64,000 nt of DNA, taken from the NCBI GenBank assembly GCA_964537975.1, contig CAZIDP010000010.1, forward strand, positions 39,433-103,432. Direction: 5' to 3'. The notes under the pieces are model-generated. The model searched no databases, had not been told where the DNA came from, and worked only from the letters and a program-made list of their open reading frames with translations. Origin of the DNA: an uncultured Nitrospirales bacterium (lineage in GTDB: Bacteria > Hydrogenedentota > Hydrogenedentia > Hydrogenedentales > SCBR16-9). Positions 7,397 to 19,603 of this stretch are shown one piece after another. A program made the translations under genes and the position numbers. The first letter of the stretch is position 1; every line of letters begins with the position of its first letter.

Positions 7397-8398
7397 ATGT
7401 ATCCTCAGCGAAAGCACCTTTACATCAAATTAGAAGAAATGCGTAAGTCAAAAGTTCTAGTGTATGTTACAGGTGATCGCCAACAACTAGAAACAAAAAT
7501 CGGTGCAGATGTCTTTGATATTTTTACGCACCATCTTGATCAAATTTATAAGCATGAACGAATCTCATTATATTTATATACACGTGGTGGAGATACATTA
7601 GCTGCTTGGAGCCTTGTCAATTTAATTCGTCAATTCACAGATTTTCTGGAAGTTATAGTACCATCCAAAGCGCTGAGTGCGGGAACATTAATGTCACTAG
7701 GCGCTAACTCCATAATCATGACCAAACAAGCAACACTTGGTCCGATAGATCCTTCAGTCAATACACCTTTAAATCCTCAAGTACCCGATGCGATTCCAAA
7801 TGCTAGAATTCCAGTAAGTGTAGAAGATTTGAATGCATTCACTGAGTATTGTCAGCAAACGCTAGGTCAACATGCGAGCGAGAAAGAATTCATTTTGTTA
7901 TTGTCCGAGAAAATACATCCCCTGGTATTAGGTAAAGCGTATCGTGCTAGAAGTCAGATTAGGATGCTGGCAAAAAGGCTGTTAAGTAATCAAAGTCATG
8001 CTCCAGATAAACTCGATAACTTGCTAAGTTTTCTTTGTAGCGAGTCAGGCAGCCACGATTATACTATCAACAGACGGGAAGCACACGATGAATTGGGGCT
8101 GCCAATCGAGAAACCAGACGATGCGCTATATAGAATAATAAAAGAGATATATGATGATATAGCTGGTGAATTAGAACTTTCAACCCCGTTTCAACCCAAT
8201 AACATCCTGGCAAAACAAAACGCTGTTGAATATAATTTACCCAGAGCACTTGTTGAAAGTGTTGATGGTGGTTCGCATTGTTTTTGCAGTAAAGGTATAC
8301 TGACAAAAACACAATTAAAAAATGATTCCGGTATACTCCAAAACGCAATATATGACAATCGCGTTTTTGAAGGATGGGAACAACAAAATGAGCATTAG
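7397..8398 (+). CDS. SDH-family (Ser-Asp-His) ClpP-fold serine protease
   Basis: LYTRGG, ALSAGTLMSLGA (Ser), LGPIDP (Asp), GSHDYTI (His). Confidence 0.85.
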   Translation: MYPQRKHLYIKLEEMRKSKVLVYVTGDRQQLETKIGADVFDIFTHHLDQIYKHERISLYLYTRGGDTLAAWSLVNLIRQFTDFLEVIVPSKALSAGTLMSLGANSIIMTKQATLGPIDPSVNTPLNPQVPDAIPNARIPVSVEDLNAFTEYCQQTLGQHASEKEFILLLSEKIHPLVLGKAYRARSQIRMLAKRLLSNQSHAPDKLDNLLSFLCSESGSHDYTINRREAHDELGLPIEKPDDALYRIIKEIYDDIAGELELSTPFQPNNILAKQNAVEYNLPRALVESVDGGSHCFCSKGILTKTQLKNDSGILQNAIYDNRVFEGWEQQNEH

Positions 8399-8726
8399 AG
8401 AAGAGAAAAAACTACAAAATCCAAGCAATTTCAGCACTACCTCAGACGCTCAGATAGGGTCAAAATCCAGTACTGCTGATAATAATACTCATTCATCATA
8501 TATCATGGAGCGCATTACCAGACTGGAAGGCCCAATTGCGATTATTGAGGACATCCATAGAACACATCAGGCAAAAGAAAACAAAGAGGTAAATACCTCT
8601 ACACCAGAACAACATCAAATTTCCAAATTTTCATCTCACAGGCTTGACAGCAACAAGACATTAGATGATGCCATATGTTACGTAATCAATAAGCGTTTTG
8701 AAGTGCTACAACAGCTTGCTGAATAA
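8388..8726 (+). CDS. Probable antitoxin (diverged AbrB/MazE-like) for the downstream Doc toxin
   Basis: Overlaps protease end; TAATG coupling to doc; C-terminus 'DDAICYVINKRFEVLQQLAE' resembles Doc-antidote tails; alternative start at 8505. Confidence 0.6.
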   Translation: MSIREEKKLQNPSNFSTTSDAQIGSKSSTADNNTHSSYIMERITRLEGPIAIIEDIHRTHQAKENKEVNTSTPEQHQISKFSSHRLDSNKTLDDAICYVINKRFEVLQQLAE

Positions 8727-9127
8727 TGACTTCTGTCATCTATCTTACTGTAGAAGATATATTGAAAATTTACCGACATTCAATGTTCAAGTTTGGTGGA
8801 GAGGCTGGTATTTTAGATAATAAGCTACTGGAGTCTGCTGTTGCCATGCCACAATCAACGTATGACGGTATAGAACTTCATATCGGTATATCTGAAAAGG
8901 CTGCTGCGTATCATTATCATTTATGCTCAAATCATCCATTCATTGACGGCAACAAGCGTATTGCTCTCGCCGCTGCAGAAGTTTTTTTACTCCTGAATGG
9001 TTATGAACTCGATGCAAGTGACAATGAAGTATTAAATCTTACGCTTGGTGTAGCAAATGGAGAACTTTCTAAAGCACAGGTCATTGCATTTTTCAAACAA
9101 CATGTTATTGATAGAAATACTGATTAA
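8726..9127 (+). CDS. doc: Doc (death-on-curing) family type II toxin
   Basis: HPFIDGNKR motif, GILDNKLLESAVAMP, EKAAAY; 133 aa. Confidence 0.92.
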   Translation: MTSVIYLTVEDILKIYRHSMFKFGGEAGILDNKLLESAVAMPQSTYDGIELHIGISEKAAAYHYHLCSNHPFIDGNKRIALAAAEVFLLLNGYELDASDNEVLNLTLGVANGELSKAQVIAFFKQHVIDRNTD

Positions 9128-15059: not shown

Positions 15060-16115
15060 ATGCCGCTTGTACCAATGCGTCAAATACTCGATGAAGCTGC
15101 CAAAGGCGGTTATGGCGTCGGCGCTTTTAACATCAATAACATGGAGCAAATCCAGGCGATTATGATGGCCGCGCAAGAAACCAAAAGTCCGGTTATCATG
15201 CAGGTCAGCCGTGGTGCATTGAAGTACTCAAATGACTTGTACTTGCGCCGGTTGGTAGATGCTGCCGTCGAATTGAATCCAGATATTCCCATTGCACTGC
15301 ACTTGGATCATGGCAACAGCTTCGATACTTGTAAGCGTGCTATTGAATTGGGCTTCACCTCAGTCATGATGGATGGCTCACTGGATGAAGATGGTAAGAC
15401 ACCCAACACCTATGAAAAGAATGTGGATGTCACCCGTCGCGTTGTCGAACTTGCCCGCCCACTGGGCGTAACAGTGGAAGGCGAATTGGGCTGCCTGGGT
15501 GGTATTGAAGACGGTCATGGTGCCGGTATTGCCGCGGATGACACGGAACACCTTACAGACCCGGCTGAAGCCGAAGATTTTGTTGCCAAGACCGGCGTCG
15601 ACGCGCTGGCCGTTGCCATCGGTACCAGTCATGGTGCCTACAAATCATTGCGGAAAGACCCCAAAACTGGTGAAATGCTTCCTCCAGCATTGGCCATGGA
15701 CCGGATTCATGAAATTCACAAACGTATGCCCCATTGCCACATGGTGATGCACGGTTCCAGCTCAGTACCAAAAGAACTGGTCGACATCATCAACCAGTAT
15801 GGTGGCAACATGCCCGGCACCTATGGTATCCCGGTCGATCAGATTCAAGATGGAATCAAGCATGGTGTGCGTAAAGTCAACGTTGACACCGATATGCGCT
15901 TGGCCATGACCGCGGCAATCCGCAAAGTCTATGCGGAACAACCAGAAAAGTTTGACCCACGTGATTACCTTTCAAAAGCACGTGAAGCTGCTGCGGAAAT
16001 GTACAAAGACCGTATGCTGGCATTTGGCCAGGCAGGGCACGCTGGCGATTTCAAGCCAATGACCCTGGAAGAGATGATTGAAATCTACAAAAGCGGCGAA
16101 CAAATCAAAGCATAG
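15060..16115 (+). CDS. fba: Fructose-bisphosphate aldolase class II
   Basis: [40 protein letters not shown]; AAGGAG RBS before ATG 15060. Confidence 0.97.
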
Positions 16116-16152
16116 GCATCGATCTCGTTCTATTTATACTCAATCTTGAATT

Positions 16153-16181
16153 TCACCTCGGGCAGCTCATGTCCGGGGTGA
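16153..16181 (+). terminator. Probable terminator after fba
   Basis: TCACCTCGGGCA-GCTCA-TGTCCGGGGTGA hairpin. Confidence 0.5.
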
Positions 16182-16297
16182 TGTTTCAGTAGAGTATATA
16201 GGCGCGGCATAGAACAATAAACGACTAACCCTTTCTCATTTTTTAGAATAAATACTGAAATCAAAATAGTCGACCAAAGTGACGATGTTATAAATAG

Positions 16298-16326
16298 TTG
16301 CAGTGTCTGACGAAAAATGGTTTAAT
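16298..16326 (+). promoter_or_regulatory. Putative sigma70 promoter for the peptide gene
   Basis: TTGCAG-N17-TTTAAT with TGn extension, about 40 nt upstream of ATG 16364. Confidence 0.4.
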
Positions 16327-16363
16327 AGTGCTTTCTTGGAGAACGACCAACGGAGCGAAGCAG

Positions 16364-16483
16364 ATGAAACATATTAGAACGATTTCGACGGCCAGGGCGG
16401 ATGCTTTCACCGATTTCTGGAATGCGATCTGGCGCGCTTGGCGCGATTTTCGATTTCAGAAAAAAAATGAAATGGGCATTTAA
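16364..16483 (+). CDS. Putative RiPP precursor peptide, 39 aa (MKHIRTISTARADAFTDFWNAIWRAWRDFRFQKKNEMGI)
   Basis: GGAG RBS 8 nt upstream; SCIFF-like MKHI(R/K)T leader; first gene of a GNAT/CPBP/ABC/RRE cluster; followed by a hairpin. Confidence 0.8.
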   Translation: MKHIRTISTARADAFTDFWNAIWRAWRDFRFQKKNEMGI

Positions 16484-16499
16484 GTCCCAGAATTTTTAT

Positions 16500-16545
16500 A
16501 GACCGGAACATGTGTGTTGAGCCTTAATCGGCAATGTTCCGGTCT
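16500..16545 (+). terminator. Stem-loop directly after the precursor gene
   Basis: Perfect 12-bp inverted repeat AGACCGGAACAT / ATGTTCCGGTCT followed by TACTTT. Confidence 0.7.
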
Positions 16546-16668
16546 TACTTTGTACATCATATTGTTTATTTTATATTTTTTTCAATATGATATTATGCTT
16601 CATGCATTTCATGGTTTCACATCATTTCGTTGATGTGTGTCGAAATTCAGAACGATTGTTGTATCTGT

Positions 16669-17190
16669 ATGATTACTCTCAATAATGGCTATATCCGCAT
16701 GGCAGAACCCGATGATGCCCGAGCACTTTGCTGGTTGTACCTTGACGGGAAACCAAGGGCTGGACTTCTCGATAACCGCAGAGAACCATTGATACCCACG
16801 GTTGATGAGCTTCGTGAATTATTGGGACGCCATGAAGCTGCTATGGGGAATCTCTTTGCCATTGAAGACGACATCGGTGAAGTCATGGGGTTTTGCAATT
16901 TGCGTGGCATGACGCAAGATACCGGTTTCGGTGACCTGGCAATGATGTTTCTTTCAGACGATACCTTTCAGTCAACCCTGGCAGACAGTGTTATGCACTT
17001 TGTCTTCGAACGCTCTTTCGAAAAGTCACAACGTAAACGAATTTATGCTTCATTGCTTAGTTGTGAAACCTGTTTTCGCGATTTCCTCATACGCCATGGA
17101 TTTGAAAGCAACGGGGTGCAGCGAGAAGTCATTTATACCGGGGGTAACTGGTTAAATCTCGAATCTCTGTCACTAGATACGTCAATCTGA
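16669..17190 (+). CDS. GNAT-family (RimJ/RimL-like) protein, atypical
   Basis: IRMAEPDDA start, FAIED..GEVMGF, HGFESNGVQREVIYTGGNW C-terminal signature; start could be further upstream (16630). Confidence 0.75.
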   Translation: MITLNNGYIRMAEPDDARALCWLYLDGKPRAGLLDNRREPLIPTVDELRELLGRHEAAMGNLFAIEDDIGEVMGFCNLRGMTQDTGFGDLAMMFLSDDTFQSTLADSVMHFVFERSFEKSQRKRIYASLLSCETCFRDFLIRHGFESNGVQREVIYTGGNWLNLESLSLDTSI

Positions 17191-17220: not shown

Positions 17221-17865
17221 ATGTCGTTTAGCACAGACTCATACTTGCGGCGCGCAGAGCGGGAAGATCTCGACACGGTTGTAGCCTGGATGGAAGATGA
17301 AGACTTTCAGCACTTTCTCTATGGTGATCCCACCCGCTCTCCAAAGCAGATTCGCGAACATATCGTATCCATGTTGGGCCGTTCTGTTGGGCATACGATG
17401 CCTGGAGGGCTGTATCTCATTATCGATTCACCCTCCCAAGGGCCATTGGGCATGATTTCACTCCAAAACGTCAGTTGGCGAAATCGTTCATGTAACCTGG
17501 ACTTTTACTTGGGCAGTAAGGGCATGAGAAACCACATGATGACAGCAATTGCAGTATATCGAGCCTTGGAATACTGCTTTGATGAGTTAAATTTGCATCG
17601 GGTTGCCGCATACATATATGCATTCAATACTCCATCTTGGCGAATATTCCAAAAGGCTGGCGCTATTCGTGAGTTGGTCATGCGGAATCACATTGTCCGT
17701 AATGGCAATTTGTATGATGTTTACGGTTATGGATTGTTACGCCGTGAATTTGAAGCTGTTCGCGCGCAAAACAAGAGCATGCATAGTGTATCGTTACAAC
17801 AGATGATTTTAAAATTGGCAGAAGTAGAAGACGATACGCCAATGGATGAGGCAGCTACCCCGTGA
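17221..17865 (+). CDS. GNAT-family (RimJ/RimL-like) N-acyltransferase
   Basis: LRRAEREDL, LEYCFDELNLHRV, FNTPSWRIFQKAG, RNGNLYDVYGYGLLRREF. Confidence 0.85.
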   Translation: MSFSTDSYLRRAEREDLDTVVAWMEDEDFQHFLYGDPTRSPKQIREHIVSMLGRSVGHTMPGGLYLIIDSPSQGPLGMISLQNVSWRNRSCNLDFYLGSKGMRNHMMTAIAVYRALEYCFDELNLHRVAAYIYAFNTPSWRIFQKAGAIRELVMRNHIVRNGNLYDVYGYGLLRREFEAVRAQNKSMHSVSLQQMILKLAEVEDDTPMDEAATP

Positions 17866-18581
17866 ATGTGGTAATTGCTCTGTTTGGCGTTTTCTTTTTG
17901 GGCTATTTCCTGCATGCACTTTACGCAAACCTTGCATCCGCTGAACAAGACGCAACAGTAAAACCTGGCCCCAATGTTTTTCTTTTACAAACGCCTTTGT
18001 TTATTTTATCTATTTTTATTGCTGCCAGAGAAGGTTACATGGACAGGGGACTTATCTCACCACCATTCATTGCTCTGGGGGTTCTGGCTGGACATCTGAC
18101 TTTTGCTGTATCGGTCTGGATTACACACAGGAACGGACAAGACGCCTGGAAACATTTTACCCACATACGCCCTGTTTTATATTTTTTCCAAGAAAGCCCG
18201 ACCCTGATTATCCGTTTTCTTGTTATCAGTGTTATAGAAGAAATCATCTACCGCGCTGCCCTTCAACCGCTTCTAATTAACTGGTCGAGCAATCCAATAT
18301 TTGCAATTGCGGTGGTTGCCATCCTGTTTTCTGTGGTACACTGGCACTTCTTTCGAAACCGGCTACCCGATTCATTGGAATTTCTTGGATTCTCAATATT
18401 ACTTGGCGTACTGTTTTACTATACAGGCAATTTGGCACTTGTTATCTTGATTCACACACTGCGAAATCTCGAAATTGTCTATCTGGAATATCTAGTGAAG
18501 CTGGATGAATTAAAAGATGAAACTTCAGCACTGCAATATATTGAGCAGCAATATGTACGACAGACATCGGAGAAATTTTAA
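17862..18581 (+). CDS. CPBP/Abi (type II CAAX) intramembrane metalloprotease
   Basis: EEIIYR, FSVVH, HTLRN motifs; multiple TM helices; GTGA overlap with the upstream GNAT. Confidence 0.88.
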   Translation: MNVVIALFGVFFLGYFLHALYANLASAEQDATVKPGPNVFLLQTPLFILSIFIAAREGYMDRGLISPPFIALGVLAGHLTFAVSVWITHRNGQDAWKHFTHIRPVLYFFQESPTLIIRFLVISVIEEIIYRAALQPLLINWSSNPIFAIAVVAILFSVVHWHFFRNRLPDSLEFLGFSILLGVLFYYTGNLALVILIHTLRNLEIVYLEYLVKLDELKDETSALQYIEQQYVRQTSEKF

Positions 18582-18583
18582 CG

Positions 18584-19603
18584 GTGAACACAGAATCGCT
18601 GGTTACACTGGATGGTATTCACAAAACCTTTTTTACACGCCATTTCTTTTATAAAGATGGTGATGTTGCTCGACGCAAGATATATGTAAAAAAAGAAGTA
18701 CCGGCGGCACAAGATATCAATCTGAATATTGCCCCGGGACATATATTCGGGTTACTCGGACCCAATGGGGCTGGGAAGACAACAACGGTTAAAATGATAT
18801 CCGGGCTGGTTAAACCTGACCAGGGAACAGTCTGGGTAGATGGCATCAATGTAGAACGGGCCCGCAAAAAGGCATTACGAAAGATTGGTGTGGTACTGGA
18901 GGGGACACGCACCACTATATGGCCATTGACCCCAATGGAGAATCTGCGTTATTACGGCAACTTGAAGAATGTACGGGGCCGTGTGCTTAAAGAACGGGCA
19001 ACCCAATTGTTAGATTTTATCGGTCTTTCAGAAAAGAGAGATATTCAGGTGCGCCTGTTGTCTCGGGGACAAAAACAAAAATTGGCTATCTGTATAGCCT
19101 TGATAGCCGACCCAAAAATTATCTTGCTGGACGAACCGACGACCGGTCTCGATGTGCAAAGCAGTCGCGCTATAAAAGACAAAATAATCGAAGTTACCCG
19201 AGAACAAGGTAAAGCAGTGCTTGTCACCACACATGACATGCATGTGGCTCAGGAACTGTGCGACACCATTGGCATTATTGACAAAGGGGTCATGATTACC
19301 TGTAAGCCTACCGGTGAATTAATTGAACTGTTCAGTGAGACCGTTTTTGTTTTCCGTCTGGATGAATCACCAAATCTGGATACCATAAAAGATATCCCGG
19401 GCATTCTGCACGCAAAAAATGAAGTCAAAAAGGGTGAAAAGATATTGGTTCTTCATATGACCCCGAACAACACATTTCGTTCTGAAGCCCTGTATGCCGT
19501 TATCGAACAACTCAGAAACGCCGGTATACAATTGCATGGTATCGATCAACGCCAGCAAAACCTGGAAAGCGTTTTTCTTCAACTTACAACCAGTTCTATA
19601 TAA
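18584..19603 (+). CDS. ABC transporter ATP-binding protein (ABC-2/DrrA-like exporter)
   Basis: GPNGAGKTT, LSRGQKQK, LLDEPTTGLD, TTHDM. Confidence 0.95.
   Translation: MNTESLVTLDGIHKTFFTRHFFYKDGDVARRKIYVKKEVPAAQDINLNIAPGHIFGLLGPNGAGKTTTVKMISGLVKPDQGTVWVDGINVERARKKALRKIGVVLEGTRTTIWPLTPMENLRYYGNLKNVRGRVLKERATQLLDFIGLSEKRDIQVRLLSRGQKQKLAICIALIADPKIILLDEPTTGLDVQSSRAIKDKIIEVTREQGKAVLVTTHDMHVAQELCDTIGIIDKGVMITCKPTGELIELFSETVFVFRLDESPNLDTIKDIPGILHAKNEVKKGEKILVLHMTPNNTFRSEALYAVIEQLRNAGIQLHGIDQRQQNLESVFLQLTTSSI

Follow-up and report, generated by a model that had tools for sequence, protein, structure and literature searches.

A conserved small gene of Hydrogenedentota as the probable precursor of a modified-peptide pathway

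Introduction

What does a 39-codon open reading frame (ORF) do when it lies directly upstream of acyltransferase, protease and transporter genes, and does it serve the degenerate radical-SAM protein encoded at the far end of that set? The ORF occupies positions 16364-16483 of the forward strand of a 64,000-nucleotide stretch of contig CAZIDP010000010.1 (assembly GCA_964537975.1), which belongs to an uncultured bacterium of the candidate phylum Hydrogenedentota; we refer to the whole stretch as the window. An earlier reading of the letters, made without database searches (the sequence-only reading), had proposed an easily missed peptide precursor with a SCIFF-like leader and a Cys-free Trp/Phe helix as its core. 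We judge it probable that this ORF is the precursor of a pathway resembling those for peptides synthesized ribosomally and modified post-translationally (RiPPs), and it is likely, as part of the same explanation, that the gene cluster is almost universal in Hydrogenedentota, specific to that phylum and vertically inherited.

Results

A small gene under purifying selection

The ORF runs from ATG to TAA in the window sequence and encodes the same 39 residues, none of them Cys, that the sequence-only reading had given. The automatic ORF list carries the frame back to a TTG at 16298 (61 residues); the methionine of the initial MKH is the start in all homologues of the window peptide, which favours the ATG at 16364. 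The parts of the gene discussed below are as follows, where type A denotes the subgroup of the precursor family to which the window peptide belongs.

16352-16355, plus strand: ribosome-binding site GGAG, 8 nucleotides 5' of the ATG
16364-16399, plus strand: leader, residues 1-12, MKHIRTISTARA, which follows the family leader logo; residues 1-11 are placed in the complex model
16397-16405, plus strand: leader-core junction A12-D13-A14, candidate cleavage region; A12 invariant, D13 and A14 at least 90% conserved
16400-16483, plus strand: core D13-I39 and stop codon; a Trp/Phe amphipathic helix, then KKNEMGI
16460-16465, plus strand: Lys33-Lys34, with K33 the proposed acyl acceptor, at least 90% conserved in type A

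The ribosome-binding site claimed for the gene is kept throughout the family, as one of GGAG, GAGG or AGGA occurs at -18 to -4 in 122 of 132 family peptide genes and at 10.8% of 5,000 random positions. Codon-level conservation among homologues, which had been suggested as a check, was clear. Against L004, a locus from the same genus, 21 of the 120 ORF bases differ with no amino-acid change, and all 39 residues are identical. Nucleotide identity falls from 99/120 in the ORF to 114/266 in the upstream spacer and 67/151 in the downstream spacer (43-44% in the flanks), while the neighbouring proteins of the two loci range from 93% identity (an aldolase) through 89% (ABC permease), 81% (GNAT2), 78% (ABC ATPase), 68% (CPBP protease) and 60% (GNAT1) to 54% (the maturase). 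Sixteen gap-free type A homologues of exactly 39 codons gave a median proportion of synonymous differences (pS) of 0.79 and of nonsynonymous differences (pN) of 0.27, and their column entropies of 0.80, 0.71 and 1.28 for codon positions 1, 2 and 3 make the third position the most variable. A variable leader set in conserved flanking DNA had been named as a pattern that would tell against the gene; we found the opposite, with the leader the part conserved throughout the family. Judged by these patterns of substitution, 16364-16483 is a genuine gene, strongly conserved and under purifying selection.

The description of the gene as easily missed was only partly apt: the exact 39-residue sequence is already present in the public protein collection, where it has no name. 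Names are attached to 9 of the 58 cluster members (ten representatives), and each time the name is "hypothetical protein". The window peptide matched no Pfam or NCBIfam family (NCBIfam release 20), and a scan of 41 type A peptides against NCBIfam at E ≤ 10 returned seven unrelated families only, each matching at most three members. A sequence search of solved structures with the window peptide gave two chance matches (E > 1) and no CteA chain, a protein atlas search with it gave unnamed clusters only, with scores below 0.8, and Rfam had no match at E ≤ 1 in 15900-16800.

A metatranscriptome library (X13) holds a 352-nucleotide contig from a close relative that spans 16359-16711. It differs from the window at 22 letters, of which 21 are listed: two fall within the ORF (16438 T>C and 16465 A>G) and 19 in the 228 nucleotides downstream. 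The two within the ORF are the third codon positions of A25 and K34, and both are synonymous by reading of the codons. Word depth in this contig is 14.7 over the peptide and 5.65 over GNAT1, figures that cannot rank expression. Contigs of this kind reveal neither transcript ends nor transcript levels, and we take this one as a hint that the peptide gene is expressed. Gaps in cover of the window in runs X13, X4 and X7 carry no meaning, and the small shares in runs X5, X6, X8-X12 and X14-X19 are no evidence of habitat; X2 and X3 had shares of 0.61 and 0.28.

One leader on many cores

The maturase served as the anchor for collecting related loci. Searching for loci with one maturase sequence brought up no relatives, and an alignment (A1) was needed as the query; 94 relatives were found in the protein collection, the few named by organism all being labelled Hydrogenedentes or Hydrogenedentota, and a scan of species genomes gave 110 relatives, from which 80 loci were kept. 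Wherever a contig extends far enough, the gene order is peptide or peptides, GNAT1, GNAT2, CPBP protease, ABC ATPase, permease and maturase. Two rounds of profile search over six-frame translations of the loci, using hidden Markov models, identified 142 small ORFs, all on the strand of the enzymes and all upstream of GNAT1; 132 could be given a start codon, and 131 of the peptides are distinct. At least one precursor was present in 43 of the 45 loci that reach upstream of GNAT1, L069 and L078 having none. When 1.84 billion cluster representatives were searched with a profile, 84 matched at E ≤ 0.001, of which 83 are 30-87 residues long, the exception being a 287-residue protein at E 7.7e-04.

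The family shares a leader with the consensus M-K-H-[ILV]-[RK]-x-[IVL]-[ST]. Across the 131 distinct peptides, Lys or Arg occupies position 2 in 122 and His position 3 in 121, position 7 is Ile, Val or Leu in 127, position 8 is Ser or Thr in 128, Pro stands at position 11 in 70 and Ala at position 14 in 97. This one leader precedes at least six types of core, each consisting of a hydrophobic or amphipathic stretch followed by Lys. The C-proximal Lys is the sole core feature common to all types: a core Lys is found in 130 of 131 peptides, the last one a median of 6 residues from the C-terminus and followed by Asn, Glu or Asp in 92. Cys occurs in 18 of the 131 cores and is missing from 113.

Arrays at other loci hold up to five or six diverse precursors. 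In 41 of 44 arrays automatic typing assigns type A to the final gene ahead of GNAT1, and the remaining three (L010, L016 and L060) carry a peptide before GNAT1 that is A-like as judged by eye. The window's own genome has a single type A gene.

Precursors were also seen apart from the cluster. Further precursor-like ORFs with an MKH leader are scattered through the window's genome away from the enzymes (on contig C1, including its minus strand, and on C24, C64 and C22), among them a tandem of three with B-, C- and D-like cores at approximately G000:C1:101283-102000 (about 8284-9000 of locus L086), directly 3' of a gene for a 1141-residue PAS/HisKA/HATPase/REC hybrid kinase. In the genome of L078 the precursor array lies on another contig and GNAT1 is still in the cluster. 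Arrays unlinked from the enzymes imply recognition in trans, as expected for leader-guided enzymes. In three further genomes (those of L019, L024 and L027) the main cluster lacks GNAT1 and the peptides, and array, type A gene and GNAT1 stand together elsewhere (L089, L088 and L087, respectively); from this joint relocation, type A and GNAT1 would seem to work as a pair.

Distribution across the phylum

We surveyed 135 Hydrogenedentota genomes, 86 of them of high quality; these genomes are kin rather than independent samples, and incomplete assemblies do not prove absence. The maturase was found in 123 of the 135 (83 of the 86 high-quality genomes) and the type A peptide in 110 (77 of 86). The two occur together in 109 genomes, the maturase by itself in 14 and the peptide by itself in one (G073, 88% complete), and 11 genomes have neither. 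The system is mostly single-copy, with fixed synteny.

Nine of the 11 genomes that lack both genes belong to a single family, f7. Of the 14 genomes of f7, 5 carry the maturase and 1 the peptide. Several of them are 94-97% complete, so that f7 looks like a natural clade that has mostly lost the system and could serve for comparison.

A maturase without the radical-SAM motif

The protein at the downstream end of the cluster can be described as follows.

20498-22489, plus strand: maturase, 663 residues, with a RiPP recognition element (RRE), a degenerate radical-SAM barrel, a SPASM-like domain and a GNAT domain, by AlphaFold (AF2) model and Foldseek

The start in the ORF list, a GTG at 20408 that overlaps the permease gene, is probably too early, as homologues align from the Met at 20498. 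The two best family matches are both to C-terminal halves and below threshold (QhpD, 66.8 bits against a cut-off of 453; the SCIFF maturase TIGR03974, 56 bits against 425). The AF2 model, built from an alignment of 32 sequences, has a mean pLDDT of 85, and Foldseek ranks CteB first among its matches (5WGG; E 6e-16, TM-score 0.70 on the target, 489 columns); the last ~170 residues match the RimJ, RimL and SpeG acetyltransferases.

None of the 32 aligned homologues has the CxxxCxxC motif, and the loop that follows the first strand of the barrel has no ordered structure in the model. Seven Cys are invariant in these 32 sequences, namely C23, C25 and C28 in the RRE and C411, C414, C420 and C443 further on. 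The latter four form a CX2CX5C...C pattern, which we take to be the Aux II ligand pattern of SPASM domains; the Aux I ligand pattern is not present. The maturase had been said to have lost its Fe-S ligands, and this held for CxxxCxxC; it did not hold for the Aux II-like set or for the new CxCxxC motif, both of which are invariant. Going by the alignment, radical-SAM chemistry is lost and not all possible metal ligands are. As neither CxxxCxxC nor the Aux I pattern remains, thioether formation by radical chemistry is excluded, and a Lys-Trp cross-link made in this way was ruled out along with it on the missing motif. Between the window and L004 (7512-9527) the RRE is 76% identical, the SPASM-like part 66%, the GNAT domain 60% and the barrel 39%, from which the former catalytic barrel appears to be under relaxed constraint.

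We then considered how leader and maturase might meet. Modelled as a complex from alignments A1 (maturase) and A2 (peptide), the pair gave a median score of 0.82 over three runs, and the best of three controls scored 0.02; 58 of 80 solved complexes pass the mark for this score, as do 2 of 110 mismatched pairs, which is a rough guide since custom alignments were used here. At least 48% of contacts are common to the three runs, and with partner pLDDT at or above 47 the peptide's own fold is uncertain. Only peptide residues 1-11 are confidently placed, on the RRE, where they contact maturase residues 16, 23-29, 31-32, 59, 62-63, 66-67, 69-70, 73-75, 345-348 and 454-468. In the separate maturase model the third RRE strand is made up of residues 23-29, and residues 57-72 are helical. 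The modelled contacts match the invariant residues C23, F24, C25, E27, C28, D29, E59, E62, V63, E66, W69 and L70, and the RRE contact residues are acidic and face a basic leader, a coincidence that does not depend on the complex score. We read this as a modelled likeness to CteA-CteB rather than as binding.

One strand within this contact set deserves separate mention. The sequence C-F-C-F-E-C-D (CxCxxC in 32 of 32 homologues), residues 23-29 of the maturase at 20564-20584, is RRE strand β3; it coincides with the modelled leader dock, where leader residue His3, itself nearly invariant, lies alongside. The strand may bind a metal or have a structural role only.

An amphipathic aromatic core with a conserved lysine

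The alignment of 41 type A peptides shows no variation at M1, H3 and A12 and at least 90% conservation at K2, D13, A14, N20, A25, W26 and K33. The aromatic helix face that had been described from the letters is borne out: on a 100-degree wheel F15, F18, W19, I22, W23, W26 and F29 fall between 140 and 280 degrees, with D13, D17, N20, R24, R27 and D28 on the opposite face. D13-Q32 has a hydrophobic moment of 0.56; shuffles average 0.27 (sd 0.13), and 1.8% of 20,000 attain the observed value. This fraction is below 0.05 in 31 of 41 type A relatives, which are kin and not independent.

Two sites in the peptide bear on how it might be processed. The region once put forward for cleavage, near ARA|DA, corresponds to A12-D13-A14, whose three residues show 90% conservation or better in type A (A12 without exception), and a cut near these residues would fit that conservation. 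Lys33 and Lys34 had been offered as acylation sites, and with K33 so conserved and a core Lys in nearly every family member the proposal gains support; K33 is the best candidate acceptor because no feature other than the C-proximal Lys recurs in every core type, and acylation there is what the sequences would predict.

A leader-guided acylation pathway as the probable explanation

The claim that the ORF is a genuine precursor serving the adjoining degenerate maturase is upheld by its conservation and synteny, its shared leader and the modelled leader-RRE interface. Two features typical of RiPP systems are present: a small gene is clustered with modifying enzymes, a protease and an exporter in an order kept in related loci, and a conserved leader precedes variable cores (six types, 131 distinct peptides). 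The enzymes between the peptide gene and the maturase are listed here.

16630-17190, plus strand: GNAT1 (PF13420, E 1.2e-06), always directly downstream of the type A gene
17221-17865, plus strand: GNAT2, a RimJ/RimL-like amine N-acyltransferase (PF13302, E 7.2e-19)
17862-18581, plus strand: CPBP (Rce1-like) intramembrane glutamic protease (PF02517, E 8.3e-15, 55.3 bits against a cut-off of 22.4)
18584-19603, plus strand: ABC transporter ATPase, DrrA-like (PF00005, E 8.8e-31; TIGR01188, E 7e-70)
19654-20493, plus strand: putative membrane permease partner of the ABC ATPase, syntenic at 40-89% identity

Under this explanation the peptide gene would be transcribed from its own upstream region and transcription would stop at a strong hairpin, so that more precursor than enzyme transcript may be made. 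The basic leader MKHIRTISTAR is modelled as a β-strand on strand β3 (C23-D29) and helix α3 (E59-L70) of the N-terminal RRE, and the maturase, no longer capable of radical-SAM chemistry, would act as a scaffold that offers the core both to the GNAT domain it carries and to the two free-standing GNATs. The three GNATs would acylate an amine, most likely the ε-amine of Lys33; the CPBP protease would then cut off the leader near the A-D-A junction, the few residues that follow the Lys, or the two of them; and export of the Trp/Phe-rich amphipathic product would fall to the ABC transporter. By analogy, the pathway may work like a leader-guided RiPP system that borrows the architecture of the SCIFF maturase for different chemistry.

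Several points weigh against this explanation. Fourteen genomes with the maturase gave no type A peptide, many of them fragmented assemblies in which absence is not proven. The core, including K33, is not placed in the complex model, which covers residues 1-11 only, and its score could stem from a solved structure that the model remembers, that of CteB-CteA (5WGG). The X13 contig is no proof of transcription because such libraries may contain DNA. GNATs usually have a CoA-binding loop of the form Q/R-x-x-G-x-G/A. Inspection by eye does not reveal this loop in any of the window's three GNAT domains (GNAT1, GNAT2 and the fused one), which may mean that the acyl group comes from something other than an ordinary acyl-CoA or that some of the domains are inactive. 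RimJ/RimL-like GNATs are N-α-acetyltransferases, and by that analogy the enzymes would suit N-terminal modification as well as Lys modification. More generally, modification, cleavage and export are inferred from sequence, as are the acyl donor and acceptor.

A more specific version may be put forward tentatively. It holds that this is a new RiPP class carried as a lineage-wide vertical trait, in which a former radical-SAM scaffold, having kept only its RRE, one auxiliary-cluster site and the newly invariant CxCxxC, feeds MKH-leader peptides to three GNATs for Lys acylation. A CAAX-protease relative would trim the product and might recognize the acylated Lys; type A would yield a Trp-rich amphipathic peptide that bears an acyl group and does housekeeping work in the envelope or in signalling, and around which variable satellite cores diversify. 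We regard this full account as possible, and as clearly less secure than the assignment of the ORF as a precursor.

Alternative explanations

One may postulate instead that the modification common to the family is acylation of a new N-terminus after leader removal, with the conserved Lys serving as a recognition or membrane-anchoring residue. GNAT2 and the fused GNAT do resemble the N-α-acetyltransferases RimJ and RimL, the A-D-A junction is nearly invariant, and N-terminally acylated RiPPs made by GNATs are described in the literature (PMC13647313, in the part of that paper we draw on); a GNAT fused to the leader-holding protein should nevertheless act before the leader is removed, and core types differ in their new N-terminus, while 130 of 131 peptides share the C-proximal Lys. 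On this evidence N-terminal acylation is rather unlikely, if the best placed of the alternatives.

A classical antimicrobial bacteriocin is a somewhat poorer fit. The Trp-rich helix would kill competitors, with the CPBP (Abi-type) protein and the ABC transporter providing self-immunity and export, and indeed the core is an amphipathic aromatic helix, CPBP and ABC-2-type genes lie within the cluster, and arrays of up to five or six diverse precursors look like diversifying weapons. Bacteriocins usually show a sporadic distribution and fast-changing cores, however, and here the maturase and peptide are found in 123 and 110 of 135 genomes, mostly single-copy and in fixed synteny; the type A core is more conserved than the enzymes (100% identical where the maturase is 54%); and the CPBP protein keeps all its catalytic motifs and so is more than an immunity protein. 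Of the two functions that the sequence-only reading guessed at, the bacteriocin is thereby disfavoured and improbable. A frozen core, single-copy occurrence and vertical inheritance instead make an envelope-associated or signalling factor likelier than a strain-level weapon.

That the product is an unmodified small protein, such as a membrane-associated regulator or a GNAT or ABC subunit that docks on the RRE-like domain, would accord with a core that is highly conserved (which is unusual for RiPP cores), with a maturase that is catalytically degenerate as a radical-SAM enzyme and with RiPP chemistry that is itself only inferred for the pathway. It is hard to reconcile with one leader on at least six unrelated core types in arrays, which is a RiPP pattern, with three conserved GNAT domains and an active-looking protease that travel with the peptides, or with precursor arrays that also work unlinked from the enzymes, and we consider it very unlikely. 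Finally, a frame that arose by chance between genes, or conservation owed to a non-coding RNA, might be suspected for a short ORF that several other small listed ORFs overlap, and is refuted as far as sequence analysis can do so by the exclusively synonymous differences from L004, variability that tracks codon position, the conserved ribosome-binding site, 84 representatives among 1.84 billion proteins and the blank Rfam search.

Relation to known peptide systems

Our preferred reading of a leader-guided precursor has its parallel in the SCIFF (ranthipeptide) pair CteA-CteB, as CteB is the best structural match of the maturase and the modelled leader forms a β-strand between β3 and α3 of the RRE, the position described for the CteA leader on the CteB RRE in the relevant parts of two reports (PMC6231123, PMC8326336). 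One of these describes SCIFF as lineage-wide in Clostridia, a distribution taken there as an argument against an antimicrobial role (PMC8326336), and the Hydrogenedentota system is lineage-wide as well; together with its single-copy synteny and the frozen type A core, this points to a conserved role in the cell or in signalling, like the one argued for SCIFF (PMC8326336). Unlike SCIFF, the window peptide lacks Cys and does not match TIGR03973, the maturase lacks both CxxxCxxC and the Aux I pattern, and a fused GNAT, two more GNATs, a CPBP protease and an ABC exporter are present. The function of SCIFF is regarded as still poorly understood, and the parallel may help to explain what lineage-wide small modified peptides are for.

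Membership in the SCIFF precursor family itself (TIGR03973, six_Cys_in_45) was rejected. The family model, whose cut-off is 50 bits, gave no match to the peptide locus in the window's genome even at E ≤ 10, and it is not among the seven families matched by the 41 type A peptides at E ≤ 10; the six-Cys core is missing (0 Cys), and the partner has no CxxxCxxC and scores 56 bits against 425 with TIGR03974. The leader motif may resemble that of SCIFF leaders, as the sequence-only reading also held; a text search of the literature for the leader motif together with "SCIFF" found nothing.

Selidamides (kamptornamide, phaeornamide and the nostolysamides) resemble the present system in having GNAT maturases in a RiPP cluster and a conserved Lys near a core terminus as the likely acceptor. 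In the portions of the literature that we cite, GNATs are described as acylating the Lys or Orn side chains, or the new N-termini, of RiPPs, and selidamide acylation is presumed to take place with the leader still attached (PMC8784127, PMC13647313); selidamide precursors there carry NHLP or Nif11 leaders with a Gly-Gly cleavage motif (PMC13647313). In contrast, the leader here is of the MKH type and 12-14 residues long, with no GG and no NHLP or Nif11 match, the GNAT is fused to a former radical-SAM scaffold, and lanthionine synthetase and arginase are not present. Selidamide membership as defined was rejected for want of an NHLP or Nif11 leader and of the GG motif.

With lipolanthines, goadvionins and lipoavitides the likeness would be GNAT-family acyl transfer to a ribosomal peptide (PMC13647313), which on our side is predicted chemistry. 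The clusters of all three groups include fatty-acid or polyketide machinery, and there is none in the window cluster. Their products are acylated at the new N-terminus after leader removal.

The CPBP gene beside small peptide substrates also calls to mind peptides processed by CPBP proteases. MroQ processes AgrD, and MrtS and MrtJ are proteases of C-terminal sorting signals. The window protein at 17862-18581 gave weak matches to MrtS, MroQ and MrtJ, all far below the family cut-offs, and unlike those systems its presumed substrates have an RRE-type leader and are accompanied by GNATs.

A literature search found no description of this system, though the supplementary GNAT-cluster lists of the selidamide paper could include such loci, and the cluster appears to be a candidate for a new, undescribed RiPP class. 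If the proposed chemistry is true, a radical-SAM maturase would have been recycled as a non-radical leader-binding scaffold for acyl transfer, which would be a new route to modified peptides, and Hydrogenedentota would offer a rare case of a modified-peptide system that belongs to the core traits of an entire uncultured phylum and is not a sporadic accessory. The 12-residue leader and its RRE would then also offer a compact pair for peptide engineering. A 39-residue peptide with three or four enzymes is an easily cloned entry to Hydrogenedentota biology.

Flanking signals and neighbouring genes

Two elements flank the peptide gene.

16294-16332, plus strand: conserved upstream block, candidate promoter, kept in L004 unlike the remaining upstream spacer
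16500-16552, plus strand: terminator or attenuator hairpin, with arms at 16500-16511 and 16534-16545 and a T-rich tail

The candidate promoter consists of TTGCAG (16298-16303), a 17-nucleotide spacer and TTTAAT (16321-16326). The promoter claimed for the gene is favoured by a block conserved in L004 and is missing from the consensus promoter scan, which listed none directly upstream of the ORF on the plus strand; a promoter function for 16294-16332 is what its conservation would suggest. The hairpin at 16500-16545 has 12-bp arms and a minimum free energy of -24.3 kcal/mol (z -4.08), and none of 200 shuffles folds as well. Both arms have changed in L004 with pairing retained. Over 44 loci, the 90 nucleotides 3' of the last precursor gene have a median z of -2.1, with z below -2 in 24, and most of the 44 have a CCGGGAC...GTCCCGG stem and a T run in common. 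The scan's two terminator-like hits are one within the ORF and one that partially matches the hairpin at 16500-16545.

Among the enzymes, GNAT1 had no solved relative by sequence; its homologues align from about residue 14, and its true start is probably the ATG at 16669 rather than 16630. The nearest solved relatives of GNAT2 are ordinary amine N-acetyltransferases. CPBP proteases are defined by the motifs EExxxR, FxxxH and HxxxN/D, and EExxxR, FxxxH and HxxxN are kept in 42 homologues of the window protein. The product of 19654-20493 matched no Pfam or NCBIfam family, and its position and hydrophobic sequence suggest a permease. After the cluster, on the minus strand, the product of a gene at 22513-23400 has a start that by eye resembles a prepilin-type N-terminal methylation motif; proteins with prepilin-type motifs are common in Planctomycetes-like genomes.

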